A stretch of 64,000 nt of DNA from Patescibacteria group bacterium. GTDB taxonomy: Bacteria > Patescibacteriota > Microgenomatia > UBA1406. Below are positions 4,121 to 64,000 of the stretch, in pieces; position 1 is the first letter of the stretch; each line of letters opens with the position of its first letter. The stretch spans positions 40,339 to 104,338 of the forward strand of contig JBAYJK010000002.1 in NCBI GenBank assembly GCA_041665145.1, written 5' to 3'. Under the pieces are notes generated by a model. That model ran no database searches. It had not been told where the DNA came from and saw only the letters and a list, made by a program, of their open reading frames with translations. A program made the translations under genes and the position numbers.

Positions 4121-4844
4121 TGTGCTCTTCTCTACTAAATTCTACGTTGGTGAATAGTTCTTGAACATCGTCCTGTTCTTCCAATTTTTCAAGCAGCGTA
4201 ATTACTTTTTCCCGGGCACCGGCATCGATTTCAACCGTTGATTTCGGCTTGTAAATCAGTTCCGGGGCTTTGGAAATACCCGCTGATTGAGCTTTTTGCA
4301 AAGCCTCAGATAATAACTCGTATGCTAAAACCACATAGTACACACCGTCGTGTTTCTCGATATCAAGCCCCCCGATGGTTTCCGCAATTTGTAAAGCTTC
4401 TTCTTCTGTTTTACCTTCCAGCTTCATGGTTCCCAACAGATCGAACATATACAAAACCGCGCCTTTTTCTACAAGCTTACCTCCGTTTCGGTTCATGATC
4501 TGGCTCAGTTCCCCATGCGTTCTATTCGGATTATCGGTAACCGTCTTGATGACCACATATACGCCCGCAGGGCCTACTGCCTCATAAACCACTTCGGTCA
4601 TTGACTCGGTTCGTTCTTTGATGCGGTCAATAAGTCGGTTAACATTCTCCTTGGGCATATTAACCTCCCGGGCCTTATCAATAGCCATACGTAGGCGGAG
4701 ATTAGCATTCGGATCCGTGTCTCCTCCACCCATCTGGATAGCAAGAATAATCTCCCGGGAAATCTTTGAAAATTCTTTGCCCCGCGCCGCATCATTTGCC
4801 TCTTTCTTTCCTTTGATGTTGGCCCAGTGCGAATGTCCTGACAT
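4113..4844 (-). CDS. yebC: YebC/PmpR family DNA-binding transcriptional regulator
   Basis: Canonical N-terminus MSGHSHWANIKGKK...RGKEFSK...LRLRMAIDKAREVNMPKENV. I start at the ATG at 4844 rather than the track start at 5024. TGcTATACT lies 6 nt upstream. Confidence 0.9.
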   Translation of the reverse strand: MSGHSHWANIKGKKEANDAARGKEFSKISREIILAIQMGGGDTDPNANLRLRMAIDKAREVNMPKENVNRLIDRIKERTESMTEVVYEAVGPAGVYVVIKTVTDNPNRTHGELSQIMNRNGGKLVEKGAVLYMFDLLGTMKLEGKTEEEALQIAETIGGLDIEKHDGVYYVVLAYELLSEALQKAQSAGISKAPELIYKPKSTVEIDAGAREKVITLLEKLEEQDDVQELFTNVEFSREEHNA

Positions 4845-4863
4845 GGGGTTAGTATAGCACACC

Positions 4864-15607: not shown

Positions 15608-17218
15608 TTACCGTCGCACCGCCGACAGATACATCTGATGCACCGGCGTGTTGTACCAGGTGAACGGGATATACCCGTTCGGGCCGATCGACGCTGCGAA
15701 CCAACCGGAGGGCCGGCAGACTGCCTGACCGCCGGCGATAATGGTCGTCCGGAACTGTGTGGTGACCGTGCCTTCAGGCGGCACAACCACATAGAGTTCC
15801 AGGAAGTGCGCCTGCCCGCATCCGTTCGGGCTCGGAGAGGCCGGCGGATCCAACAAAGTCACGCTGGTTGTAATCTCTGTCCGGTTGTACACAGTAGCCG
15901 TCATCGTGACAGTGCCCGAGTACCCCAAGCTTGGGGCCCCGAACACCGGGACATTGACGCCCACCAGTGGCCCGAGGGGCAGCGATTCAAATGTAACCAC
16001 CCACTGCCCTGCTTCCCTGGCCATGTACCCGAACTCGATCGTAGTCGCTGTCGTCGCACACGCGACATGCGCCGGCATTACCTCAGCGACCGTACTGGTG
16101 AATTCCCAGCCTGCCGCCACATGCGTGGCATCATGCAGGCTCCAATCTTCAAGCACTGGCCCTGCGGAACCAACTAGCGGCTCCCCGTTAGTGAAGAGCG
16201 CATACTGCCCACAAGCGCTCACATTGTAAGCCTCCCCACGTACTTGAGGCTTGTTTGTCAGTTCCAATTTCCACGCCTGACTCTTGAACTCTTCGGACAA
16301 CACCTTGTTCGGACCAATTTCACCGAACGTGCCCCACACACCACCTTGGCGGGTGGAAAGCCACAGCTTGCCGGCAAACGTAACAGAGATACAGCGCCCG
16401 AGTAGGCACTGGCCTTCTCCCAGCCCATCCGGCAAAGCCGGGACGGGCTGGACCATGTCCCGCGACTTGCCCGATTCGAGCATGTGGGAGATGTGGACGA
16501 CCTGCCGAGTGCTGATGTTGCTGACGTACGTCAGCCCCACTCCGAGCTCAGTCGTCTCTGCGAGCCGCGGCATGAGTTGCCCGGCGGGACCGGACGGGTC
16601 GGCAGCTTTCTCGGCCGACCAGCTTCCATCAAGCTCGCGGACACGGTATCGCACCGTTCCGTCCAAGGAGTACGCGACGACCACGCGGCCGTCGGTCAAC
16701 TGCAAAGCGCTCGTCCCTTCCGGCAGATTATCATTCATACTACCGGACAGTTTCGTGAGCAACCAACTTCCGTCGCCAATTTCGGCCGTCCAAAGACCGA
16801 TGTCCGGCGAGCTACCCTTCGCCAGCACGAACAAAATCGGCTGACAATTCTGGAAAGCAATTGCTTCGAGCGAAACATTGAACTCATAGTATAGGGGGGT
16901 AATTGGGGCCAACCCAAATTCTCCCTTGTGAAAAACGGCCGGAAATGTCCGGCCCGCCGTAACGTTCGTGACTCCGCCCCAAACGCCTGCGCAGGCGTCG
17001 GCGGCCAGGATCGGTTGCACTTGATCCCCTTCTTGGGCGTCCAGCCCGGGGGCCACAGGCAACTGCAACATGAGCGGCTTATTCGGCGCCGCCACAGCCG
17101 TCGCGACCGAAGCCGCAAGATTGCACAGCTTGAACCCGATAACTAACGCCAGCACCGCTGGCGCCGTGAGGATTAACCGCCCCCACCGCGTTCGAACAAG
17201 AAACCGTCCAAGTCCCAT
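15608..17218 (-). CDS. high-GC foreign-looking gene: N-terminally anchored/secreted protein with Asp-box-like (DGSW) motifs, possible beta-propeller
   Basis: 536 aa with a hydrophobic N-terminus GRLILTAPAVLALVIGF. IGDGSWLL and ELDGSWSAEK resemble BNR/Asp boxes. Hand counts of 60-nt samples inside gave 60%, 63% and 75% GC, against 38-52% in flanking genes. AGGAGG lies 4 nt upstream of the ATG. Confidence 0.75.
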   Translation of the reverse strand: MGLGRFLVRTRWGRLILTAPAVLALVIGFKLCNLAASVATAVAAPNKPLMLQLPVAPGLDAQEGDQVQPILAADACAGVWGGVTNVTAGRTFPAVFHKGEFGLAPITPLYYEFNVSLEAIAFQNCQPILFVLAKGSSPDIGLWTAEIGDGSWLLTKLSGSMNDNLPEGTSALQLTDGRVVVAYSLDGTVRYRVRELDGSWSAEKAADPSGPAGQLMPRLAETTELGVGLTYVSNISTRQVVHISHMLESGKSRDMVQPVPALPDGLGEGQCLLGRCISVTFAGKLWLSTRQGGVWGTFGEIGPNKVLSEEFKSQAWKLELTNKPQVRGEAYNVSACGQYALFTNGEPLVGSAGPVLEDWSLHDATHVAAGWEFTSTVAEVMPAHVACATTATTIEFGYMAREAGQWVVTFESLPLGPLVGVNVPVFGAPSLGYSGTVTMTATVYNRTEITTSVTLLDPPASPSPNGCGQAHFLELYVVVPPEGTVTTQFRTTIIAGGQAVCRPSGWFAASIGPNGYIPFTWYNTPVHQMYLSAVRR

Positions 17219-17294
17219 AGGACCTCCTGTATGTTGGCTCTAAACCTTAAAATCCGGTTTATGCCATTAAACAGAAAGAAATAACTATCCCTGG

Positions 17295-17335
17295 ATTCCC
17301 GCCTTCCTGCCTCGACGGCAGGCGGGCGCGGGAAT
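17295..17335. repeat. GC-rich nested palindrome (family B-like)
   Basis: attcccgc-c-ttc-cctgcc-tcgac-ggcagg-cgggc-gcgggaat. It begins with a T-loop-like gGATTCCCGCC. Confidence 0.6.
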
Positions 17336-17612
17336 GACAGCATTACAATATAGCAATACAGCAATTTCCTTCTCTTTATCGGCATAAACCGGTAATCAGT
17401 GTAGCCTGTTAAAGAACCACACATATCGCACAGCAATATCGCGCGATACATATTTGATATGTATATTATATCTAACTATAGGATGGGAAGCAAATTACGA
17501 CTGGATAAGTTGATTTGAGAAAAAAGGAGAAATATTGGGTCCCCTTTCGCAGGGCAACAAACCTAGCGGGCCGCCTATGGCGAGCCTCGCTCCAAAATTT
17601 GTTTACAAATTT

Positions 17613-18847: not shown

Positions 18848-18885
18848 TCCCCCTTCGTCTCGCCAGTAGGCGGACTTCGGTGGGA
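18848..18885 (-). repeat. 38-nt GC-rich hairpin element, family A, copy 1 (downstream of 5S rRNA)
   Basis: tcccccttcgtctcgccagtaggcggacttcggtggga. It is 36/38 identical to 55514-55551. Confidence 0.8.
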
Positions 18886-18936: not shown

Positions 18937-19057
18937 GCCCGGGCTATGACCTATTGTCCCAGTCAGTTGGACTGACGAGTATCGTTGGCGCTAACCTGTT
19001 TCACGGCCCTGTTCGGAATGGGAAGGGGTGGGTCCAAGTCGCACAAATAACCAAGGC
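18937..19057 (-). rRNA. rrf: 5S ribosomal RNA (ends approximate, +/-5 nt)
   Basis: The minus strand contains ...cccaccccttcccattccgaacagggccgtgaaac...gcgccaacgatac..., matching the universal 5S loop B/C region CCCAUxCCGAAC...GUGAAAC. Helix I pairs gccttgg with cccgggc. Confidence 0.8.
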
Positions 19058-22058: not shown

Positions 22059-22099
22059 AGAGGGTAATTATAATATAAAATCAATAAGAAAACAAGGAG

Positions 22100-22239
22100 A
22101 TTAAGTTGTAAGCTGAAAGATGTAAGTCGAAATAAAGTTGAAAACATAAAGCTTTAAGTTGTATTGAGATTTCATTAAAACTTACAACTTAACTAATTAC
22201 AACTTGATTACAACTTACAACTTAAACCTTACGACTTAT
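22100..22239. repeat. TTACAAC/AAGTTGTAA-type word-repeat palindromic array
   Basis: taagttgtaagctgaaagatgtaagtcgaaataaagttg ... cttacaacttaaaccttacgactta. Confidence 0.8.
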
Positions 22240-23437: not shown

Positions 23438-24751
23438 TTAATTTTTGCTGAATTCTTCAAGCGCGCGTTGCAATTGTGCGTCGGTTGCTTCAGTGATTGT
23501 ATTGCCTTCTGATATTTTATTCTCAACCTTGATTTGAGGCTGGATACCTTTTCCGTTAATCCAGTCACCTTTGGGAAGAATCCATTTGGCGACAGTCACA
23601 TGGAGTCCAGCGCCACTTCCCAAATCAAGAGCTTCCTGCACCGAACCCTTGCCGAAAGATTTCATGCCGACAATTTTCGCACGGCTATAATCCCGGAGCG
23701 CTCCGGCAAATATTTCCGCGGCGGATGCAGATCCCTCATTGATAAGCACGACAGTTGGAATTGTTTGCAAATTACCTACGCGTTCGACCACGTAGTCTTT
23801 TCCGGATTTGTCGGCATATTCCTGACGCACCACCCGCTTACCAAGCGGAATAAAGTCTGACGACAAATACACAGCACTCTCCAAATAACCGCCCGGGTTG
23901 CTTCTCATGTCCACTACGAGACCGGAGATACTTTTGCTTTCCCATTTCTTCCCGACTTCTGTAACTGCCCTATCCCACCCCGCCATAGTATCATCCCCGA
24001 ATTGCGAGACTTTTATATATGCAACATCACGACATGACGCGCTGCACGATTCGGCTTTTTTGTAGGAAAGCTCGACTGATTGAACTTTGATTTGCTCTCG
24101 GGTAAGTGTCAGCGTCAACTCTTCCGTCCCACGCAGCAGTCCGAGTGTTACTTTCGTTCCGTGAACTCCGCGGATTTTTGCAACGGCAGTCGTCAATGTC
24201 ATACCTTCTGTTGTTACTTTATCGATCGTAAGAATTTTATCTCCCGATTTGATTCCTGCCTTCTCAGCAGGAGAACCTTTCAGAGGAGCTACAATGGTAA
24301 TGACATTATCCTGCATACCCAACTGTGCACCTATACCCTCATACTTACCTCCCAAGTCATCTTTTGCGGCTTTGTTTTCGGTGGGTGTCAGAAAAAAAGT
24401 ATACGGGTCATCGATTGACGCAACCATGCCCTTGATTGCACCAAAAACCATTTTCTTTGTATCAACTTTGTGCTGATCAACATATTTGGTTTTGAGACTA
24501 TTCCACACTGTCCAAAAAAGTGTTAAATCAGGTGTTGTGTCTGCTTTAGAATTTGTTGTTGCTTGTTGACTATTAACTCTTGACCCCTCGCCTCGCTGCG
24601 AAGCGGGTTGACCATCAACCATCAACAGTTGTTTCTGTCGATACTGCCCCAAACGATATCCGCTGCCGAATATAAACAGTACTATTGCGGCCAGCAGAAT
24701 AATGTTCGTAAAACGTTGTAGTTTTTGTTGTTTTTGTAAATCTACTTCCAT
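23438..24751 (-). CDS. S41 family C-terminal processing peptidase
   Basis: N-terminal TM, PDZ (PAEKAGIKSGDKILTID), LVVDMRSNPGGYL, VLINEGSASAAEIFAGAL. Confidence 0.9.
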   Translation of the reverse strand: MEVDLQKQQKLQRFTNIILLAAIVLFIFGSGYRLGQYRQKQLLMVDGQPASQRGEGSRVNSQQATTNSKADTTPDLTLFWTVWNSLKTKYVDQHKVDTKKMVFGAIKGMVASIDDPYTFFLTPTENKAAKDDLGGKYEGIGAQLGMQDNVITIVAPLKGSPAEKAGIKSGDKILTIDKVTTEGMTLTTAVAKIRGVHGTKVTLGLLRGTEELTLTLTREQIKVQSVELSYKKAESCSASCRDVAYIKVSQFGDDTMAGWDRAVTEVGKKWESKSISGLVVDMRSNPGGYLESAVYLSSDFIPLGKRVVRQEYADKSGKDYVVERVGNLQTIPTVVLINEGSASAAEIFAGALRDYSRAKIVGMKSFGKGSVQEALDLGSGAGLHVTVAKWILPKGDWINGKGIQPQIKVENKISEGNTITEATDAQLQRALEEFSKN

Positions 24752-26579: not shown

Positions 26580-28007
26580 TTACTTCTTTTTTACTCCCGA
26601 AATATGGTTGATAGACGCTCCTGAGTGAATTGTAACAAAACCCAACCGCTGGGCTTCTTTCTGGATTGTTGCAAATATGTTAGTCTTCCTGACAGTTCCC
26701 AAAAGTCCAACTTCACCGACATACAGTTCTCGGCTGTTCAACACCGTACCGGTGAGACTGGAATAAATAGCAGCTGCAACTCCCAAATCAGCAAGCGTAT
26801 CCGAAACGGTAAGACCGCCTGAGACATTTACATAGACATCATACGAATCAACCGACAGTCTCAGATACTTCTTAAGTATCGCGAGAATAAGTTCCAATCG
26901 CTTTGAATCTATTCCTTTTGCAACGCGTTTCGGGTACGGCAAAGAAGTGGTTACAACCAGCGTTTCCACTGTTGCAAAAATGATGCGCACTCCCTGTCGA
27001 ACGGCAATCGAGGCTTTCCCCACCGCTTCATGCTCAAGATCAAGGAAATACTGGCTGGGATTCGGAACTTCATGAATACCTGTTTCTTTTATTTCGAAGA
27101 AGCCAACTTCATCCGTCGGACCGAAGCGGTTTTTAAAAGCCCGCAACATGCGGATATTCGTAACCCTCTCACCTTCCATAAACAATACGCAATCAACCAT
27201 GTGCTCCAAAAATTTTGGTCCGGCGATATCACCCTCTTTCGTAATATGACCGACAACCAATGAGACGATTCCTTTTTCTTTCGTGAAATTGACGATACGC
27301 ATCAAAACCTCTTTCGACTGTGCAAGCGACCCCGGAAGGCTGTCGTGATCTGACGTATACAACCCTTGAAGGGAATCAAATACGACAAGTTTGATTTGAC
27401 TCGTGACTCGTGACTCGTGACCAGAGATACGCGATGCGTGATTCGAGATGAGTTCATCAAGACCTTTTAATACATTATCTATATTTTTTTCTGAAGAAAA
27501 TAGAATCTTGTCTGCCGGTACATGCAGGCGTTCTGCCCGATGTTCCAATTGCCTTCCCTCTTCTTCACTGGAAACATAGACAACCTGTCCGATACTTTCA
27601 GTCAATTTACCGAGAATTCCGAGGAGCAGTGTCGATTTACCGACACCCGGTTCACCTGCAATCAGAACAACTTCGTCGGAAACAAATCCACCACCCAACA
27701 CGCGGTCGACTTCGCCAAAGCCCGTCACGATTCTCGCAGATTGTAGTTTGGAGTTTGGAGATTGTTTCAAACTGGCAAACTGTGCCGGCTCCCCCGCGGC
27801 CGAGAATAACTCGCCCCTACCCCTCCGTCCTGATTCTTTACTTTCGACTTTCGACTTTAGACTTTCTACTTCCCGTAGGGTCTTCCATTCCCCGCATTCC
27901 GGACATTTGCCATACCAACTTGCAAAAACATTTCCACAATTACTGCATACAAAACTGGTTTGGGATTTCACAAGGAAAATTCTCTCACATCTCACTACCA
28001 AATGCAA
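26580..28007 (-). CDS. radA: DNA repair protein RadA/Sms
   Basis: C4 zinc finger CSNCG...CPECG, Walker A GEPGVGKSTLL, KNRFG, Lon-like C-terminus. The real start is probably the GTG at 27971 (VKSQTSFVCSNCG). Confidence 0.9.
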   Translation of the reverse strand: MHLVVRCERIFLVKSQTSFVCSNCGNVFASWYGKCPECGEWKTLREVESLKSKVESKESGRRGRGELFSAAGEPAQFASLKQSPNSKLQSARIVTGFGEVDRVLGGGFVSDEVVLIAGEPGVGKSTLLLGILGKLTESIGQVVYVSSEEEGRQLEHRAERLHVPADKILFSSEKNIDNVLKGLDELISNHASRISGHESRVTSQIKLVVFDSLQGLYTSDHDSLPGSLAQSKEVLMRIVNFTKEKGIVSLVVGHITKEGDIAGPKFLEHMVDCVLFMEGERVTNIRMLRAFKNRFGPTDEVGFFEIKETGIHEVPNPSQYFLDLEHEAVGKASIAVRQGVRIIFATVETLVVTTSLPYPKRVAKGIDSKRLELILAILKKYLRLSVDSYDVYVNVSGGLTVSDTLADLGVAAAIYSSLTGTVLNSRELYVGEVGLLGTVRKTNIFATIQKEAQRLGFVTIHSGASINHISGVKKK

Positions 28008-28019
28008 AGTGCATGAGCA

Positions 28020-28051
28020 GTAAGGGTTAAACCCTGTAAGGGTTTAACCCT
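28020..28051. repeat. tandem palindromic 16-mers gtaagggtt(a/t)aa(a)ccct x2
   Basis: gtaagggttaaaccct and gtaagggtttaaccct. The second unit's core is the reverse complement of the first. It overlaps the CBS-gene stop codon. Confidence 0.7.
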
Positions 28052-28862
28052 GATAGAAGTACCTAAGCAAATCGCTCGTCGTGATGATATTCTCCGGAGA
28101 GAATTTATCCTTCATTACCATAATGCTTCCGATCGAACGATCGAGAATATTGTTTATTACCGTTTGAAATGTCGTCGTCAATGTAACTTGGATCGTTTCT
28201 TTTTTCATGAAATTCGTAACCCGATATTTTTTAAATAAAGAGTTATCTTTCTTTGCATCATAAAAACCGCTCTTCTCTTTCCTGTCCTTGGGTTGCATCA
28301 GAAGCGGTATCAGATCAAAAAACGGCAGTACGCCAACTAGGTGATTTGCTTTATTGACCACAACCAATTTCATGCGTTTCGAACGTTCAAAATAACGTAT
28401 CGCCTCTTCGAGTGACGATGTTTCATTAACTGTTTCAAGATAGGCTTTTTTCGCAACAATTTCACTCACCGAGTGCTTTGATGATGTAAATCCAAGAGCC
28501 GTTCGGAGCAAACGACGTGCAGTAACTATGCCCACCATAGTTCCCGTATCATCGACAACCGGTAAATAGTGAACTTTGCTTTCGAGCATAAGTCGGGCTA
28601 CTTCCTCAAGCGGTGTGTCGAGTGAGATCTTTGACGGGTGAAACAGGCAGTTTTTTAACTTTGTGCTTACCGGATATGTTCGTTTAATAAACAGATGGTG
28701 CGGCGTAACCGACCCTAACAGTTTTTGATTTTCATCTACGATAAAAGCCGCATCGTGACTACTTTTGAATTTGCCGGAGACTTCGCCGATAGTATTCTCG
28801 GCCTGGGCATATATCACCCCATCTTGTTTGAGTATTGTTGCAGCTGTCTGATTATTCTTCAT
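28044..28862 (-). CDS. CBS-domain protein (two CBS pairs)
   Basis: 272 aa with repeated CBS-like blocks (VHYLPVVDDTGTMVGIVT; KLVVVNKANHLVGVL; IGSIMVMKD...ENIITTSDLL). Confidence 0.75.
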   Translation of the reverse strand: MKNNQTAATILKQDGVIYAQAENTIGEVSGKFKSSHDAAFIVDENQKLLGSVTPHHLFIKRTYPVSTKLKNCLFHPSKISLDTPLEEVARLMLESKVHYLPVVDDTGTMVGIVTARRLLRTALGFTSSKHSVSEIVAKKAYLETVNETSSLEEAIRYFERSKRMKLVVVNKANHLVGVLPFFDLIPLLMQPKDRKEKSGFYDAKKDNSLFKKYRVTNFMKKETIQVTLTTTFQTVINNILDRSIGSIMVMKDKFSPENIITTSDLLRYFYQG

Positions 28863-31401: not shown

Positions 31402-32229
31402 TTAGAACTTTTTGAGGATCGGTATCTTTTTTTCAAAATCATTCGGGAAAAACCACAGCTGAGTCTTTGTTACCAGTTCTTTAGTCTGATGACGATATAT
31501 AATCGCAAGTTGCAGTTTCATGAGCACGGCTTCTACAACGAGACTCAGCAAATTTAAAATTTGGAATTTTGAATTTGAAATTGATTTTGAATTTGAAATT
31601 TTAAATTTTAAATTGACATTTGGGAACAACCTCTCCACCCACCTATTCGCCTCCAAGAATTTCCGGTACGTCCCCTCTTTATCCACCACCGACATAACCT
31701 GTAATACTTCATGCCCTACATATATATTCTGCTTATTCTTCGAAATCGATAAGCTGTCTTCTGTAAAAAATAAGTTGAAGCATAGTTTATCTTTGAATTG
31801 CTGATCATTTCGTCCCCTTCTCTTTCCCATAAGAATTGATATAACGGTCAAAAAGAATCGCGCGGTCCATAACCTGTTTTTCGAAGTTATAACAAAGAGG
31901 TCGATATCATCCTTCTCTTCCGCGTTCATTGCCGCCACACTACCCGAAATACCGATAAACTTCACCCACGGCAGCGTACCTAAGAACTTGATTATGGTTG
32001 TCATTTTGCTAATTTTTTCTTTTGATATTTTCTCTCGTTTTATCGACTCGGCTATCCACCTTCTATTATTTATGAGAGCAACTCGATCATTTTTCACTAT
32101 TATTTGTTTGCCCATTGTCAACTGCCGCAGTTGCCGTGGGGTTGCCAGGAACTTCCACACCTCATAAATAGTGGGAGCGTAGTGAAAAAACGAATAATAT
32201 TCTAAAACTTGCAGAATTTCCTTATCCAT
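31402..32229 (-). CDS. nucleotidyltransferase (Pol-beta/MNT superfamily) domain protein
   Basis: GISGSVAAMNAEEKDDIDLFVIT fits the GS...D.D pattern. Start set to the ATG at 32229 (8-nt overlap with the cysS end). It contains an in-frame word-repeat block at 31545-31615. Confidence 0.5.
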   Translation of the reverse strand: MDKEILQVLEYYSFFHYAPTIYEVWKFLATPRQLRQLTMGKQIIVKNDRVALINNRRWIAESIKREKISKEKISKMTTIIKFLGTLPWVKFIGISGSVAAMNAEEKDDIDLFVITSKNRLWTARFFLTVISILMGKRRGRNDQQFKDKLCFNLFFTEDSLSISKNKQNIYVGHEVLQVMSVVDKEGTYRKFLEANRWVERLFPNVNLKFKISNSKSISNSKFQILNLLSLVVEAVLMKLQLAIIYRHQTKELVTKTQLWFFPNDFEKKIPILKKF

Positions 32230-33643
32230 TTCCAAGGAATCTTTTGGGCATAACAACTGTTTTCCCATTTGCATCTTCAAGGGTGAAACCCTGGTCTTCA
32301 ATTTGCGTGCGAACTTTATCCGCTTCCTGGAATTTCTTTTCCTGACGTAATTGTTCACGCACTCCAATTAATTGTTTAATTGGAGTAGGAATGGAAATTG
32401 CGGTGAGTTTGTCGAGATTTAACCCGAGAACTTTATCAAAATCAAAAACTATCACCATCTTGGTTTCTGCAGGCTCCTTGCTATTAAGTAATTCCCAGAG
32501 AACGGCAAGAGCAGCAGGAAGATTAAAATCGTCTTCCAAAAATGAAACAAATTTCTTTCTCCAAAGCGAATCGTGTGGAGCGACGAGGAGATCCGACGAG
32601 GAGCGACGAAGCGATTCGCGAAGTATAAAGATTGTTTTGAGCAAATTTTCAAGTCCATTATGAGAAGCTTCCAACCCTTCCCACGTAAAATTCTGTTGCG
32701 ATCGATAGTGAGCTTGTAAAAAGAAATACCGAAGTACAAGCGGATGAAACCCTTTTGCTTTTACTTCTTCCAATGAATACCCCGTTCCCTGGCTTTTAGC
32801 CATCTTTTCGTTATTCACCAAAAGGTGTTCGTTATGTAGCCAATAGTTGACAAATTTAACTCCGTTTGACGCCTCCGATTGCGCAATTTCATTCGTATGG
32901 TGTACGGGGATATGTTCCACTCCGCCCATATGAATATCTATCGTGTCACCTAAAAGCGCTTTGCTCATGGCTGAACACTCTATATGCCAACCTGGAAATC
33001 CTTCTCCCCACGGACTGCTCCAATGTTGCATCGCGTTTTTATGTTCGCCTTTCAGGAAAAACCATAGAGCAAAATCCTGTGAGTTTCTTTTTTCACTGTC
33101 TTCTACATCCGCATGTCCGGCACCTTTTACATTTTTCTCAAGTTTCTGTCCGGAAAGTTTTGTGTAACCATCAAATTTCGAAACATCGTAATAAACCGCA
33201 AGATCCGTTTTGTAGGCAAAGCCCTTTTCCATAAGTACAGAGACCATATCGATCATTTGCTGCACATATGCCGTTGCTCTCGGTTTGTGAGTAGGTTCAA
33301 GGATATTCAATGCGCGGGTATCTTGCTCAAAGATATCAATGTATTTTTTTGCAATTTCGTCCGGCGTCTTCCCTTCCCGCTTGGCTCCTTTTTCCATTTT
33401 ATCTTCGCCCTCATCTTCATCGGAAACCAAGTGCCCGACGTCTGTATAGTTTCGGGCATGCGTTACGGAGTAATCCAGATATTCAAGAGTTCGGCGGATA
33501 ACATCCCCCATGGTCATTGCCCGAAGATTGCCGATGTGCTGTGTCCAATACACCGTCGGACCACATTGATAAAAAGATATTGCACCTTTTTTCAAAGGCA
33601 CGAATTCCTCCTTTTTACGAACCAGCGTGTTGTACAATAGCAT
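32222..33643 (-). CDS. cysS: cysteine--tRNA ligase
   Basis: 473 aa. HIGNLRA (HIGH), KMAKSQG (KMSKS), GWHIECS. Confidence 0.95.
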   Translation of the reverse strand: MLLYNTLVRKKEEFVPLKKGAISFYQCGPTVYWTQHIGNLRAMTMGDVIRRTLEYLDYSVTHARNYTDVGHLVSDEDEGEDKMEKGAKREGKTPDEIAKKYIDIFEQDTRALNILEPTHKPRATAYVQQMIDMVSVLMEKGFAYKTDLAVYYDVSKFDGYTKLSGQKLEKNVKGAGHADVEDSEKRNSQDFALWFFLKGEHKNAMQHWSSPWGEGFPGWHIECSAMSKALLGDTIDIHMGGVEHIPVHHTNEIAQSEASNGVKFVNYWLHNEHLLVNNEKMAKSQGTGYSLEEVKAKGFHPLVLRYFFLQAHYRSQQNFTWEGLEASHNGLENLLKTIFILRESLRRSSSDLLVAPHDSLWRKKFVSFLEDDFNLPAALAVLWELLNSKEPAETKMVIVFDFDKVLGLNLDKLTAISIPTPIKQLIGVREQLRQEKKFQEADKVRTQIEDQGFTLEDANGKTVVMPKRFLGNG

Positions 33644-43628: not shown

Positions 43629-44195
43629 ATGGTCAAACGAAAAATAAGAGTTGGTTTTGATTTTGACGGAGTCCTCTTTTATAACCCGGCTCGCGTCATA
43701 CGCCCGTTCATCTATTTTTTTAAGCGACATGTATTGGGTATAAAAAAAACTAAATTCTACGTTCCCAAAAACGGTTTTTCGCAAACAATAGCGGCTTTGC
43801 TACACAAATCAAGTTTGATGCCCAATAAGGGATTTGATGATTTTCTCAGACTCGTGAACCACCCCGATTATGAAGTGTATATAATCACAGCCCGCTTAAG
43901 CTTTTTGAAAAATGATCTGGACAAGCTTCTGAAAAAATTTGACGTCACGAACATTAAAAAAATCATACAGAATATCGGTGACGAACAACCTCACACGTTT
44001 AAAGAACGCCTGATCAAAGAGCTTAAATTGGATTATTACGTTGAAGACAATTGGGATATTGTGAAACACCTGACGGAAAAAACAAATGCGACGGTCATTT
44101 GGATTCATAACCTGGTTGATTTGTTATTTATCAAACATCCTCACCACGGAGGAAACCTGAGGGAAGCGATCGATATTATCAAAAAGAAGTTGTAA
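43629..44195 (+). CDS. HAD-superfamily hydrolase-like protein
   Basis: N-terminal motif I VGFDFDGVL; 188 aa. Confidence 0.55.
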   Translation: MVKRKIRVGFDFDGVLFYNPARVIRPFIYFFKRHVLGIKKTKFYVPKNGFSQTIAALLHKSSLMPNKGFDDFLRLVNHPDYEVYIITARLSFLKNDLDKLLKKFDVTNIKKIIQNIGDEQPHTFKERLIKELKLDYYVEDNWDIVKHLTEKTNATVIWIHNLVDLLFIKHPHHGGNLREAIDIIKKKL

Positions 44196-44302
44196 GTCGT
44201 AAGGCGTAAGTTGTAATCAAGTTGCAACTGATGAAGTTGCAAGACTTACGGCTTTCAACTTTAGACTTTACTTCAACTTTCAGCTTACACCTTACGACTA
44301 AG
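44187..44302. repeat. TTACAAC/AAGTTGTAA-type word-repeat palindromic array
   Basis: agtcgtaaggcgtaag (44197-44212) pairs with cttacaccttacgact (44284-44299). The left arm is near-identical to 55639-55680. Confidence 0.8.
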
Positions 44303-44304
44303 TT

Positions 44305-44565
44305 TTATCCCTGGTCCTGCATTTGAAGAAGTTTTCGTGCGGCAATTTCCTGTGTTTTTTTGATAGCCTCGGCGAATGCTTCTGCAATACGGTTCTCTAA
44401 AACTCCGTCTACTTCAATCGATCGGACTTTCTGATCTCCGCTCATGACAATCTTAACGCCGTTACGTTCAATAGTAACTTCTTCCTGTGCGAGTGCATGT
44501 TGCATTGCCTGTGCTTTTTGCTGAAAATCTTTCAAATCACCCATTGCCTTAAAGGGATTAAACAT
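44305..44565 (-). CDS. ybaB: YbaB/EbfC family nucleoid-associated protein
   Basis: MFNPFKAMGDLKDFQQKAQAMQHALAQEEVTIERNGVKIVMSGDQKVRSIEVD. Start at the ATG at 44565. Confidence 0.85.
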   Translation of the reverse strand: MFNPFKAMGDLKDFQQKAQAMQHALAQEEVTIERNGVKIVMSGDQKVRSIEVDGVLENRIAEAFAEAIKKTQEIAARKLLQMQDQG

Positions 44566-48650: not shown

Positions 48651-48851
48651 GGAGGTATTGTACCGAAATCTAGCGAAATTGTTAGATTGTTAAATTGCTA
48701 TATTGCCAAATACCGGGTTGCGAAGGCAATTGTTTTCGGCGACTTGGGAGGGAGCCGTTCTCGGGAGGGGTCCCACGGAGCGTAGAAAACAAGTTGACGA
48801 GCAACACAGTAAAAATACTACATATGATCGAGAAGCGTGTAGAATACGAAT

Positions 48852-55513: not shown

Positions 55514-55551
55514 TCCCCCTTCGTCTCGCCATTAGGCGGACTTCGGAGGGA
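55514..55551 (-). repeat. 38-nt GC-rich hairpin element, family A, copy 2 (5 nt downstream of tRNA-Pro)
   Basis: tcccccttcgtctcgccattaggcggacttcggaggga. Confidence 0.8.
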
Positions 55552-55556
55552 CGCGG

Positions 55557-55630
55557 TCGGAGTGGGCGGACTTGAACCGCCGACCTCTACGTCCCGAACG
55601 TAGCGTTCTAGCCATCTGAACTACACTCCG
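55557..55630 (-). tRNA. tRNA-Pro (anticodon CGG), CCA not encoded
   Basis: cggagtg-ta-gttcagatggctagaac-g-ctacg-ttCGGga-cgtag-aggtc-ggcgg-ttcaagt-ccgcc-cactccg-a. Confidence 0.9.
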
Positions 55631-55750
55631 AAAATTAAGTTGTAAGGCGTAAGTTGCAAGTTGTAATCAAGCTGTAACTGATTAAGTTGTATATGATTAC
55701 AACTTTCAGCTTTGTACTTTATTACAACTTATACCTTACAGCTTCAGACT
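55631..55750. repeat. TTACAAC/AAGTTGTAA-type word-repeat palindromic array
   Basis: taagttgtaaggcgtaagttgcaagttgtaatcaagctgtaactg ... attacaacttataccttacagctt. Confidence 0.8.
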
Positions 55751-55769
55751 TTATTATATAATATCCGTT

Positions 55770-56738: not shown

Positions 56739-56762
56739 GTATTGAAAATTGAGAACTGAAAA

Positions 56763-57896
56763 TTGAAAATTCTATTCACCTCCACCTATTTTCACCCATA
56801 TCTTTCTGGTCTTACCGACTATCCGCTGAAAATCGGCACGTATCTTTCAAAAAACCACGAGGTGTCTGTATTGACTTTTAAACACACCACTTCCCTCCCA
56901 ACAAACGAGCAATATAGCAATTTAGCAATTGCGCGTTGTACTCCCCATTTTCGTATCTCAAAGGGTTTAATTAACATTTTCTACCCTCTCATTTCCTTTC
57001 TTCATGTTCTAAAAAATGACGTCGTATTCGTAAACCTCCCGCAATTTGAGGGCTTCTTCCCTGCGTTCTGGGGAAAAATCATGGGTAAGAAAACGTATGC
57101 TATTTATCATTGTGAACTGTTTTTTGAAAAAGGGGTTCTGTCGAAACTGATAGAATACGTGGCAAATTTTTCCGCATATCTCACCTGTATGTTGGCGACA
57201 AAAGTAATTGCGTACACAGAAGATTATGCGACCAACAGCCCCATTTTGAGGCATTTTCTACACAAGGTTATATATACGCTCCCCCCTGTCGAGCGAATTT
57301 CTCCTGATCCCGCTTACTCCAAACTGTTAACTAATAACTATAAACTATCCACTCCAATAATCGGTTTCTCGGGTCGTGTTTCAAAAGAAAAAGGGATTAC
57401 ATACCTTCTTGAAGCACTTGCGTTACTCCAAGAGAAGTATCCTTCGATTACGTTGTTATGTATTGGGCCGTTCGGTAAAGATGTCGTCGGTGAGGAACCG
57501 TATTTTGAAGAGTTACAGCATCAAATTCAAAGAAAGAAGCTTACCGTGCGGTTTCTGGGATCACGCACACACGAAGAACTCGCCTCTTTTTATAAAGCGG
57601 TTGACGTTATTGTACTGCCGTCCACAAACAAAACCGAAGCCTTTGGAATGGTGCAAGTTGAAGCTTTGCTCGCCGGAACACCCGTAGTTGCATCGGATCT
57701 GCCGGGGGTGCGCGTACCGATCAAACTATCCGGAATGGGGCTCATATGTAAACTAAAAGATGTCCGCGATCTTGCAACCACAATGGAGACGGTCATAGAA
57801 AACAGAAAAAAATATATTCAATTACCTAAAAAAATTGCTACAATCTTTGACATCAAAAAAACTTATCAATTTTACGATCAACTATTGTCTTCGTGA
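56763..57896 (+). CDS. glycosyltransferase family 4 (TTG start)
   Basis: MKILFTSTYFHPY..., C-terminal EAFGMVQVEALLAGTPVVASD (E-x7-E region). Confidence 0.8.
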   Translation: MKILFTSTYFHPYLSGLTDYPLKIGTYLSKNHEVSVLTFKHTTSLPTNEQYSNLAIARCTPHFRISKGLINIFYPLISFLHVLKNDVVFVNLPQFEGFFPAFWGKIMGKKTYAIYHCELFFEKGVLSKLIEYVANFSAYLTCMLATKVIAYTEDYATNSPILRHFLHKVIYTLPPVERISPDPAYSKLLTNNYKLSTPIIGFSGRVSKEKGITYLLEALALLQEKYPSITLLCIGPFGKDVVGEEPYFEELQHQIQRKKLTVRFLGSRTHEELASFYKAVDVIVLPSTNKTEAFGMVQVEALLAGTPVVASDLPGVRVPIKLSGMGLICKLKDVRDLATTMETVIENRKKYIQLPKKIATIFDIKKTYQFYDQLLSS

Positions 57897-57935
57897 CAAT
57901 TTAGCCATATAGCAATTTAACAAATAAGCATTATT

Positions 57936-59751: not shown

Positions 59752-59754
59752 GTT

Positions 59755-59880
59755 AGATGGTTAGTTTTCAGTTCTTAATTCTCAGTTTTTAAAGAGTTCT
59801 CAATTCTTAAGTACTAAACAGCAATTGTTTGAGAACCAATACTTAAGAACTCTTTGAGAACTGCGAACTGAGAACTAAGA
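59755..59880. repeat. GAGAACT/AGTTCTTAAG-type word-repeat palindromic array
   Basis: tagttttcagttcttaattctcag...cttaagaactctttgagaactgcgaactgagaactaagaacta. The end is shared with 63970-64000. Confidence 0.8.
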
Positions 59881-60267
59881 ACTATGTTTAACAAACTCCT
59901 GCGCCAAAATATTTATCGCATGATCCAGAAATTGCATGATGACTTTATTGATTTCTTTATCCTGCTCTGCAGCGTACAGTGTGACTTGCGGGTAGCACAC
60001 CACAATCTCTCCGAGCAATACACCTTCATTGTCACTTTGCGGAAACGTTTGTTCGTGGGCAATATACGGAAACGTCAAAACCGGATGTTCCTGGTCTTCT
60101 TTAAGATATTCCTTTGCGAGAGCCCGCGCTTTACGACTCCCCACAAAAACAATACTCAAAACACCGCTCGGCAGTTCGCGGTTTGTCCATAAATCAGACA
60201 CATACCGACGAACCATCTTCCGGTCGACGCGGTATCGAGAATCACTCGAGCAATATATTGTCAGCAT
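59875..60267 (-). CDS. YbeY-like rRNA maturation factor homolog lacking the H-x3-H-x5-H zinc motif
   Basis: 130 aa. LSIVFVGSRKARALAKEYLKEDQEHPVLTFPY and LGEIVVCYPQV follow the YbeY pattern, but the expected HGxLHLxGxDH region reads FLDHAINILAQ. Confidence 0.45.
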   Translation of the reverse strand: MLTIYCSSDSRYRVDRKMVRRYVSDLWTNRELPSGVLSIVFVGSRKARALAKEYLKEDQEHPVLTFPYIAHEQTFPQSDNEGVLLGEIVVCYPQVTLYAAEQDKEINKVIMQFLDHAINILAQEFVKHSS

Positions 60268-60499: not shown

Positions 60500-60580
60500 T
60501 GTTGAATTGTCATATTGCTAAATCTAGTCACTGATAACCAGCACAATATAGCAATTTAACAATTTAGCAAGAACATCCAT
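60500..60580. repeat. TAGCAAT/TTGCTAA-type word-repeat palindromic array
   Basis: ttgttaaattgttgaattgtcatattgctaaat ... atatagcaatttaacaatttagcaa. Related words occur at 3075-3100, 17340-17375, 43590-43620, 48670-48712 and 57897-57925. Confidence 0.75.
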
Positions 60581-63285: not shown

Positions 63286-63867
63286 TTATACGGTCATTAC
63301 TTCCTGTTCTTTACGACCCTTCATTTCATCGATCTTATCAGTATACTCTTTCGCGACTTTATCTATATCGGTTTCCGCTCGTCTTTTTTCATCTTCGGAC
63401 AGTTCCTTAGCTTCAAACGTAGTTTTCACTTTTTTCCGGATCTCGTCCCGCTCATGCCGCAGTGTTTCACGACCTTCTTCGGCAAATTGGGTAACCAATT
63501 TGACGTACTTCTCGCGCTGCTCTTGTGAAAGTGGAGGAGTTTTTGCGCGGATTTGAGTTCCTGAAACACTGACACTGAAACCGAGACTTGAATCCCTGAT
63601 CGCTTTCTCAATGTCCTGCAGTGTCGACTGGTCAAACGGACTGACAAGAATTTCCTGAGGTCCGGAAGTTGTTATGGTTGCGAGCTCGATCACTTTTAGC
63701 GTCGCCTGACCCCCATATGTTGTAACCGAGATGTTCTCGACTAACGCGGGAGAAGCACGGCCGGTACGAATGGACGCCAGATTATCCCGTGTATAGGTTA
63801 AGACGTCCTCGAGTGATGACCTGAATTCCTGTAAAGATATCATGGAAATATTATACATAATTGTCAA
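63286..63867 (-). CDS. frr: ribosome recycling factor
   Basis: IRTGRASPALVENI, IRAKTPPLSQEQREK, RHERDEIRKK. The start may be the ATG at 63843. Confidence 0.9.
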   Translation of the reverse strand: MTIMYNISMISLQEFRSSLEDVLTYTRDNLASIRTGRASPALVENISVTTYGGQATLKVIELATITTSGPQEILVSPFDQSTLQDIEKAIRDSSLGFSVSVSGTQIRAKTPPLSQEQREKYVKLVTQFAEEGRETLRHERDEIRKKVKTTFEAKELSEDEKRRAETDIDKVAKEYTDKIDEMKGRKEQEVMTV

Positions 63868-64000
63868 AAACTGTATAGTTCTTATTTCTTAGTTCTAAGT
63901 TCTCAAAGAGTTCTTAAGTCACAGTTCTTAAACAATAGTTGTTTAGTACTTAAGAACTTATCAGTTTCTTTAAGAACTGAGAAATGAGAACTAAGAACTC
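63868..64000. repeat. GAGAACT/AGTTCTTAAG-type word-repeat palindromic array (runs to the window edge)
   Basis: tagttcttatttcttagttctaagttctcaaagagttcttaag...cttaagaacttatcagtttctttaagaactgagaaatgagaactaagaactc. Confidence 0.8.

Follow-up and report, generated by a model that had tools for sequence, protein, structure and literature searches.

In-frame tandem heptanucleotide arrays in radA and other protein-coding genes of a Patescibacteria genome segment

The stretch analysed here, 64,000 nucleotides (nt) of contig JBAYJK010000002.1 that are called the window throughout, comes from a Patescibacteria genome that is close to Candidatus Roizmanbacteria. It carries short tandem arrays of 7–10-nt words in its spacers and also inside protein-coding genes, among them radA, cysS, a predicted nucleotidyltransferase (NTase) gene (31402-32229), a GT4 gene and an S41 peptidase gene (23438-24751). 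A sequence-only reading had claimed that word arrays of the spacer kind occur in frame inside essential genes. The in-frame repeat arrays are confirmed, and all the sequences and peptides quoted for radA, NTase, cysS and GT4 were found at the positions given and translate as claimed, while the S41 peptidase case was absent from that reading. The label 'essential' proved too loose, as model bacteria can do without radA, and the NTase and GT4 genes are uncharacterised. The RadA, GT4, CysS and NTase proteins are 100% identical to proteins of NCBI 'Patescibacteria group bacterium' metagenome-assembled genomes (MAGs) on two long contigs, RadA being identical to P0001 ('DNA repair protein RadA' of a Patescibacteria MAG). 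Their 90% clusters contain only this sequence, with different start calls (including P0244), and the sequence is the same in the two assemblies. The genes and arrays at issue are these:

26580-27971, minus strand: radA, 463 amino acids (aa) from a GTG start that is also the start of P0001.
27393-27425, minus strand: insertion of 33 nt (11 codons) in radA, reading on the sense strand tctgg, then three copies of tcacgag, then tcaaatc, and encoding (R)ISGHESRVTSQ(I).
27741-27782, minus strand: radA linker array of 3.4 copies of TTGGAGT with the inverted partner caaactggcaaact, encoding FASLKQSPNSKLQS in the disordered linker from the zinc finger to the ATPase.
27840-27871, minus strand: radA linker array of 4.6 copies of ACTTTCG (AAGTCGA in the sense direction), whose product EVESLKSKVESKES immediately follows the zinc finger.
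24606-24630, minus strand: S41 peptidase array of 2.3 copies of TTGATGG (sense), within a 9-codon insertion near the N-terminus.
31550-31622, minus strand: NTase array of about 9.7 heptamers of AATTTNA type (array itself 31550-31614), encoding LKFKISNSKSISNSKFQILN.
32577-32609, minus strand: cysS array of three copies of the 10-mer GGAGCGACGA with a 3-nt indel, 33 nt in all, encoding RRSSSDLLVAP.
56908-56932, plus strand: GT4 octamer array AGCAATAT/AGCAATTT/AGCAATTG, encoding EQYSNLAIA and not constituting an insertion.

Tandem arrays were called with Tandem Repeats Finder (TRF) and, for the whole window, compared with order-3 Markov shuffles. Period-7 arrays numbered 24 against 1.15 expected (approximately 20-fold) and period-8 arrays 8 against 1.4 expected, and exact heptamer repeats were counted 10 times where 0.2 were expected. 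Within the 57.6 kb of coding sequence (CDS), counts were compared with 40 codon-order or synonymous shuffles and best scores with 100 codon shuffles. Seven period-7 arrays were found in CDS against 1.0 expected (approximately 7-fold), periods 7 and 8 together gave 10 arrays against 2.2–2.3 (shuffle maximum 6–7), and the other tandem periods, including 9–12, lay close to expectation. radA makes up 2.4% of the CDS yet accounts for three of the seven period-7 arrays in it. The highest period-7/8 score among the 100 codon shuffles was 38 and none of these shuffles produced an array scoring at least 50, in comparison to 50–53 for the radA and NTase arrays (50 for radA 27840-27871, 53 for NTase) and 39 for GT4. 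Several small coding arrays of 2.0–2.7 copies (scores 32–34) fell inside the null range, and the cysS array, of period-10 type, was equalled in 34 of the 100 codon shuffles and is not significant alone. Period-7/8 arrays are mostly intergenic and abut the ends of open reading frames (ORFs): the spacers, approximately 7 kb in total, contain 22 of them, and the CDS, with its 57.6 kb, contains 10. The longest perfect coding tract is 3.6 units (25 nt), and the remaining coding arrays are 72–93% matched.

The radA segment between the Walker A and B regions had been proposed as an extra insertion, and this part of the proposal is borne out. Proteins were compared in an alignment of 19 RadA sequences (A1), codons were aligned with the close relatives, which are three short contigs (L001–L003), and Streptococcus pneumoniae RadA (5LKM) was compared as well. 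A scan of genome contigs with CysS returned no relative above 62% identity, so that all close comparisons rest on these three contigs. TGACTCG is repeated 3.6 times without mismatch at 27397-27421 (TRF) and encodes GHESRVTSQ on the minus strand. In the codon alignment, window radA corresponds to the L002-type sequence 'cac gca tcg cgt atc' followed by 'aaa ctt', with 33 nt added at the junction of the two parts; the placement is ambiguous by 3 nt, and 'atc' is present at both sides. RISGHESRVTS occurs only in the window protein and is missing in the 18 aligned orthologues, including P0002–P0004 with 75–80% identity, and from 5LKM. In the AlphaFold model of RadA (AF2; mean predicted local distance difference test score, pLDDT, of 78.7), residues 184-190 have a pLDDT below 50 and sit between helix 164-183 and the Walker-B strand 195-199. 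The segment at 27393-27425 is thus a genuine, clean, lineage-specific in-frame insertion in a tolerant, disordered loop just before Walker B. Its unit TGACTCG has no further copy in the window, and a hairpin test of the insertion was negative (z score +0.56).

A second insertion was identified in the S41 peptidase, which is 9 aa longer in the window than in L002 and carries its array there. At the same site L001 has an array of its own, with 3.3 copies of CAACAAT/CAACGGT/CAACAGT. Among the genes that are syntenic with L001 and L002, internal indels of at least four codons occur only in radA and in the S41 peptidase gene, both of which bear arrays. Similar copies of the S41 array elsewhere in the window did not exceed chance, and the same was found for the cysS array. 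In L001, words of the CAACGGT/CAACAGT kind stand in frame in two genes (1677-1701 and 4839-4861), namely in the radA linker and at the S41 N-terminus. CAACGGT-type words also form a 20-nt duplicate in the L001 radA linker, with STASGQR encoded twice, and these shared words hint at a genome-specific set of preferred words.

Both radA linker arrays lie inside RadA residues 37-78, which are unconserved in A1 and have a pLDDT below 50 in AF2. TTGGAGT spans 27741-27764 and its inverted partner 27769-27782; the region 27735-27790 gave a weak hairpin signal (z -1.87), and the similarity of the 27741-27782 array to other window sites was not beyond chance. The array at 27840-27871 weakly matches intergenic 2705-2723 (2 mismatches in 19) and the arms of the A3 family of spacer palindromes described below, and no hairpin was found at 27830-27880 (z -0.31). 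We also considered the whole linker (27735-27880) as a single decayed palindromic element and rejected this, with a z score of 0.02 and a GC-rich middle that is ancestral and common to relatives. Linker length is similar in relatives (A1), which indicates rewriting of this segment and not net insertion. L003, whose RadA is 80% identical, carries an array at the same linker codons with AATTCGA-type units in place of the AAGTCGA-type units of the window, the same G to T change being found in four of five units at equal length; this concerted unit-by-unit difference is the pattern that turnover of units within an array generates. At this site L001 carries different heptamer words and L002 carries no array, so that array content varies between species at one locus, as it also does at the S41 site and in the CysS loop. 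L005, the sole radA carrier among the 80 other Patescibacteria loci sampled, has a period-9 array in its linker. The claim that repeats encode the segment after the zinc finger stands for the arrays themselves, but the segment is hypervariable and provides no clean insertion.

Within the NTase array, 18 nt are perfectly duplicated in frame. The array is also self-complementary (z -3.26), as a consequence of its palindromic word AAATTT. In comparison with the three orthologues adjoining cysS (L004, L005 and L024; 44–45% identity), the loop is non-conserved and variable in length, the window protein being 5–7 aa longer than those of L005 and L024 and shorter than that of L004. The NTase array thus exceeds chance but does not amount to a clean insertion, with orthologues both shorter and longer; like the radA linker and CysS arrays, it rewrites its loop or makes it slightly longer.

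The cysS array lies in a length-variable loop before the anticodon-binding domain and has no hairpin (z +0.44). Among 80 Patescibacteria orthologues this loop can be nearly absent or exceed 40 residues, and the solved CysRS structure 8QHP has an equal or longer segment at the site. The repeat and peptide described for cysS are present in this variable loop, but they mark neither a clean insertion nor an array above chance. The same loop (aa ~339-371) nevertheless holds 8 of the 15 period-7 arrays found among the 80 Patescibacteria CysS genes, including a perfect ccaattt array of 4.9 copies (L045), a perfect attacgg array of 4.7 copies (L067) and an aatctca array of 4.6 copies (L030), and such arrays recur there in approximately seven species. 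This recurrence indicates that in-frame heptamer arrays at permissive loops are general in Patescibacteria. Across the wider sample, 80 other Patescibacteria loci with 1.28 Mb in total, tandem arrays most often had period 7, with 13 such arrays per 64 kb; long ORFs contained 0.91 of them per 10 kb, and the remaining sequence 7.1 per 10 kb. CysS of L009, L021, L032 and L004 has long insertions in the same loop with PTGQAGRAG- or PAGRQGR-type peptides, and these inserts resemble translated GC-rich palindromes and not heptamer arrays.

The GT4 array is of a different nature, and its reading as an insertion is refuted. AGCAATTT is repeated 2.9 times at 56908-56930, and the encoded EQYSNLAIAR, of which the invariant R58 is part, aligns without gaps (A2) with the corresponding segments of 14 orthologues, such as EQLNNITIYR. 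The DNA of the nearest orthologue has the same length at this position, is identical at 16 of 30 nt and is non-repetitive. In the AlphaFold model (mean pLDDT 91.2) the segment forms two beta-strands of an ordered beta-hairpin with pLDDT values of 92–95. Of the unit junctions it is the third that has diverged, where an in-frame TAG would otherwise arise. An exact 15-mer of the array, CAATATAGCAATTTA, is also present at intergenic 48691-48705 (minus) and 60544-60558 (plus), and the array has 22 window matches with at most 3 mismatches against 3.3 expected, with a weak hairpin signal (z -1.76). The array may have been produced by short-patch copying from a spacer copy, for example that at 57897-57935 just downstream of the gene. 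The TTG start of GT4 (56763) itself lies inside a heptamer array (56739-56771; attgaaa/attgaga/actgaaa) with no obvious Shine-Dalgarno sequence before it, and the nearest orthologue (L084) has a 6-nt spacer and an ATG start.

A heptamer or octamer array reads through all three frames every three units. Stop codons in both orientations were found in 10 of the 22 intergenic array words (45%), in comparison to 11% of random 7-mers from the window. Every coding array that reaches three units lacks stop codons on the sense strand, and the coding arrays built on stop-containing words (GT4, S41 and an array at 48849) have fewer than three units.

Intergenic arrays mostly pair as imperfect hairpins of 90–145 nt (-20 to -47 kcal/mol; z -3.8 to -5.2), and copy number in the 22 intergenic period-7/8 arrays clusters at approximately 4.0–4.5 units. 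Fold energies of these hairpins, compared between the two strands with an RNA-level terminator in mind, showed no consistent difference, and the only hits of the window in an Rfam gathering scan were tRNAs and 5S rRNA. Two families of dispersed palindromes were identified, A3 (22095-22239, 44185-44305 and 55630-55765; 74% column identity) and A4 (59752-59890 and 63865-64000). Both consist of imperfect palindromes of 115–145 nt with tandem-heptamer arms (AAGTTGT/ACAACTT and TAAGAAC/GTTCTTA words) and fold at -33 to -47 kcal/mol. Exactly at palindromic elements the window spacers are 85–138 nt longer than those of L001 and L002, which measure 7–48 nt. [quoted passage not shown] Judged on sequence, the intragenic pieces are not copies of these palindromes, apart from the GT4 match and the weaker match of radA 27840-27871. 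The statement that coding arrays are of the same kind as spacer arrays accordingly holds for their periodicity, whereas at the level of sequence it holds for GT4, weakly for radA 27840-27871 and for none of the others.

Three further repeats were observed in the window. An identical 32-nt GC-rich hairpin motif, CCCCCTTCGTCTCGCCAnTAGGCGGACTTCGG, occurs at 18849-18880 and 55515-55546, just 3' of the 5S rRNA gene (18938-19055, minus) and of the tRNA-Pro gene (55557-55630, minus), and may be a common terminator or processing signal of stable RNA genes. At 28020-28052, in the interval separating the radA start from the stop codon of the CBS-domain gene upstream, the 16-nt unit GTAAGGGTTAAACCCT is present in 2.1 copies; it contains the palindrome GGGTTAAACCC, and the repeat overlaps that stop codon. 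At 17346-17368 an octamer array that belongs to the GCAATATA/GCAATTTA family falls within an ORF of 92 aa (17173-17451, minus); this ORF overlaps the gene next to it and may be spurious.

The coding arrays belong to the same class of short tandem array as is found in the spacers of this genome and of Patescibacteria generally. We regard it as probable, with some room for doubt, that they are heptanucleotide (sometimes 8–10-nt) simple-sequence repeats (SSRs) generated by slippage or local duplication and filtered in genes by frame, stop codons and structure. Arrays would originate and turn over in place when replication slips or microhomology mediates tandem duplication, 7-nt units being intrinsically favoured, with occasional short-patch copying between similar arrays. 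Between genes they would accumulate freely, typically to approximately four units and often as inverted pairs forming hairpins of 90–145 nt. Within genes, the net length change would have to be a multiple of 3 nt, in other words steps of three units (21 nt, 7 aa); the word would have to be free of stops in every sense-strand frame, or the array shorter than three units; and the site would have to tolerate a low-complexity peptide. The outcome could be lineage-specific insertions (+11 aa in radA, +9 aa in the S41 peptidase) as well as fast-evolving, repeat-encoded linkers and loops such as the radA zinc-finger linker, the NTase loop and the CysS loop hotspot.

Several observations sit poorly with slippage as the only generator. 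The 33-nt radA insert comprises 3.6 perfect units and approximately 8–12 nt outside the array, a poor fit to a three-unit step; pure slippage by three units would need to begin with a seed of only 0.6 unit. In GT4 the array occupies an ordered beta-hairpin that is conserved and unchanged in length, a result that slippage alone cannot make. Words are shared between unlinked sites (GT4 and three intergenic copies; radA 27840-27871 and 2705-2723 or the A3 arms), and CAACGGT-type units are found in both the radA and the S41 gene of L001. Such sharing is not predicted by purely local slippage and implies some copying, dispersal or sequence-specific process; dispersal or patch copying may be a second ingredient beside slippage. 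Additionally, ongoing copy-number change was not observed, the 90% protein clusters holding one sequence only.

Alternatively, mobile palindromic elements of the RPE or MITE type, or single arms of them, could have transposed in frame into the genes, a possibility to which we give little weight. Such elements would suit the A3 and A4 spacer families with their heptamer-array arms (115–145 nt, -20 to -47 kcal/mol, z -3.8 to -5.2) and the extra 85–138 nt of window spacers relative to L001 and L002 where these elements sit. Inside the genes the correspondence is poorer. The clean 33-nt radA insertion is flanked by a repeated 'atc', yet it has neither another copy in the window nor a hairpin. The self-complementarity of the NTase array (z -3.3) is trivial given the word AAATTT, and GT4, for all that its exact 15-mer is common to intergenic copies, has no insertion of any kind. 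radA 27840-27871 does resemble an A3-family arm, but the whole linker does not behave as one fold (z 0.02), its GC-rich middle is ancestral, and the arrays of the window and L003 differ unit by unit at equal length, which fits turnover better than independent insertion events. The intragenic pieces are also only 25–73 nt long, in comparison to the ~150 bp of RPEs (PMC10969869).

A functional or selected role, in which the arrays act as phase-variation switches, as RNA regulatory sites or as 7-aa-periodic peptides serving as linkers, appears improbable. Units that are not a multiple of three would toggle a gene upon a change of one copy, and the intragenic position of such units is shared with the phase-variable SSR loci of Haemophilus, Neisseria and Helicobacter. 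In contrast to those loci, the arrays described here are short, mostly degenerate, fixed in frame and placed in internal loops of housekeeping genes; none is a long perfect tract (the longest is 3.6 units, 25 nt) and, except for the degenerate NTase array, none exceeds 4.6 units, which is unlike known phase-variable tracts. Variants switched on or off were not encountered, and the sequence is also identical in two assemblies. A functional role could be read from intergenic arrays that abut start and stop codons, the TTG start of GT4 lying inside one in a manner reminiscent of the TAACTGA repeats proposed as translational regulators, and from the persistence of arrays at one position of the radA linker in two species; the words at a given site differ between species, however, and the peptides that the arrays encode lack conservation and have predicted disorder. 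An origin by chance, from the low complexity of AT-rich DNA, or through faulty assembly is very hard to credit as a general explanation: it accommodates the cysS array and the several small coding arrays within the null, and it may still apply to cysS alone, being refuted for radA, NTase and GT4 by the seven coding period-7 arrays against 1.0 expected, by scores of 50–53 against a null maximum of 38, by the same proteins in two assemblies and by arrays at the same sites in independent assemblies of relatives.

Among known systems the SSR explanation has a close counterpart. Heptamers of this sort, named short tandemly repeated repetitive (STRR) sequences, were reportedly described in cyanobacteria by Mazel in 1990 (cited in PMC4692102). 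Heptameric SSRs are over-represented in many bacteria, mainly in intergenic positions near ORF ends, and slippage has been proposed to explain them (PMC4692102); they prefer approximately four units, some form inverted pairs that give stem-loops, and their length and sequence vary among related genomes (PMC4692102). Examples of over-represented heptamers are GGGAATC of Xanthomonas and GGGGAYT of Nostoc (Mrazek et al. 2007, cited in Rehm et al. 2015, PMC4692102). The arrays of the window share with these SSRs and STRRs their tandem 7-nt units, the over-representation of period 7, the mainly intergenic location, copy numbers of approximately four, inverted pairs and variation between species and genomes. 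They differ in being AT-rich, with diverse words in several families where the known case has one G-rich, quadruplex-forming word, in their Patescibacteria host, and in their in-frame occurrence at recurrent loops of housekeeping genes. TAACTGA heptamer repeats of Beggiatoaceae, Cyanobacteria and Bacteroidetes are placed before start codons or over stop codons (MacGregor 2015, PMC4679880), with a minority within ORFs, mostly at protein peripheries, and have been proposed to be translational regulators (PMC4679880). The window arrays likewise occur at start and stop codons, with a minority in ORFs and with stop content limiting their orientation, but no single word is conserved and the internal loops of conserved enzymes (RadA, CysRS, S41 peptidase) are affected, not only termini or hypothetical proteins.

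The parallel with RPEs, which had been drawn for the window arrays from the outset, holds as an analogy only. RPEs are conserved palindromic families of ~150 bp, each with a conserved encoded peptide (PMC10969869). Both cases involve repeat DNA in frame in housekeeping genes at tolerant positions (the radA insert and linker both have a pLDDT below 50) and palindromic dispersed repeats in spacers. The intragenic segments of the window, however, are tandem arrays of 25–73 nt, mostly non-palindromic, and they have neither the size of RPEs nor a dispersed family nor a stable hairpin. The one clean radA insertion is made of a unique word, and absence from orthologues applies to radA and the S41 peptidase, whereas NTase and CysS have variable loops and GT4 has no insertion. 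A literature search on heptamer or SSR repeats in Patescibacteria or the candidate phyla radiation (CPR) found nothing relevant.

Slippage-generated SSRs may be part of something wider. We suggest tentatively, and as a speculative extension, that a heptamer-generating process common to Patescibacteria, either a property of replication and repair or a small dispersing repeat system, could be the main builder of spacer DNA and its hairpin elements and could also account for most multi-codon insertions in otherwise conserved housekeeping proteins. Permissive loops would be hit repeatedly and independently (the RadA linker, the S41 N-terminus and, in approximately 7 of 80 species, the CysRS loop), and the process would occasionally overwrite conserved coding sequence, as in GT4.

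The arrays reveal no new kind of mobile element and no new function, and can be regarded as a rather commonplace consequence of a bacterial repeat type that is already known. For annotation, 7-aa-periodic low-complexity segments in these proteins would be repeat by-products and not functional domains, and the arrays, as fast-evolving markers, could separate close strains. For the biology of this uncultured and very reduced lineage, one simple mutational process would shape the spacers as well as the way in which core proteins vary in length, and would provide a concrete source for the lineage-specific loops of CPR proteins.

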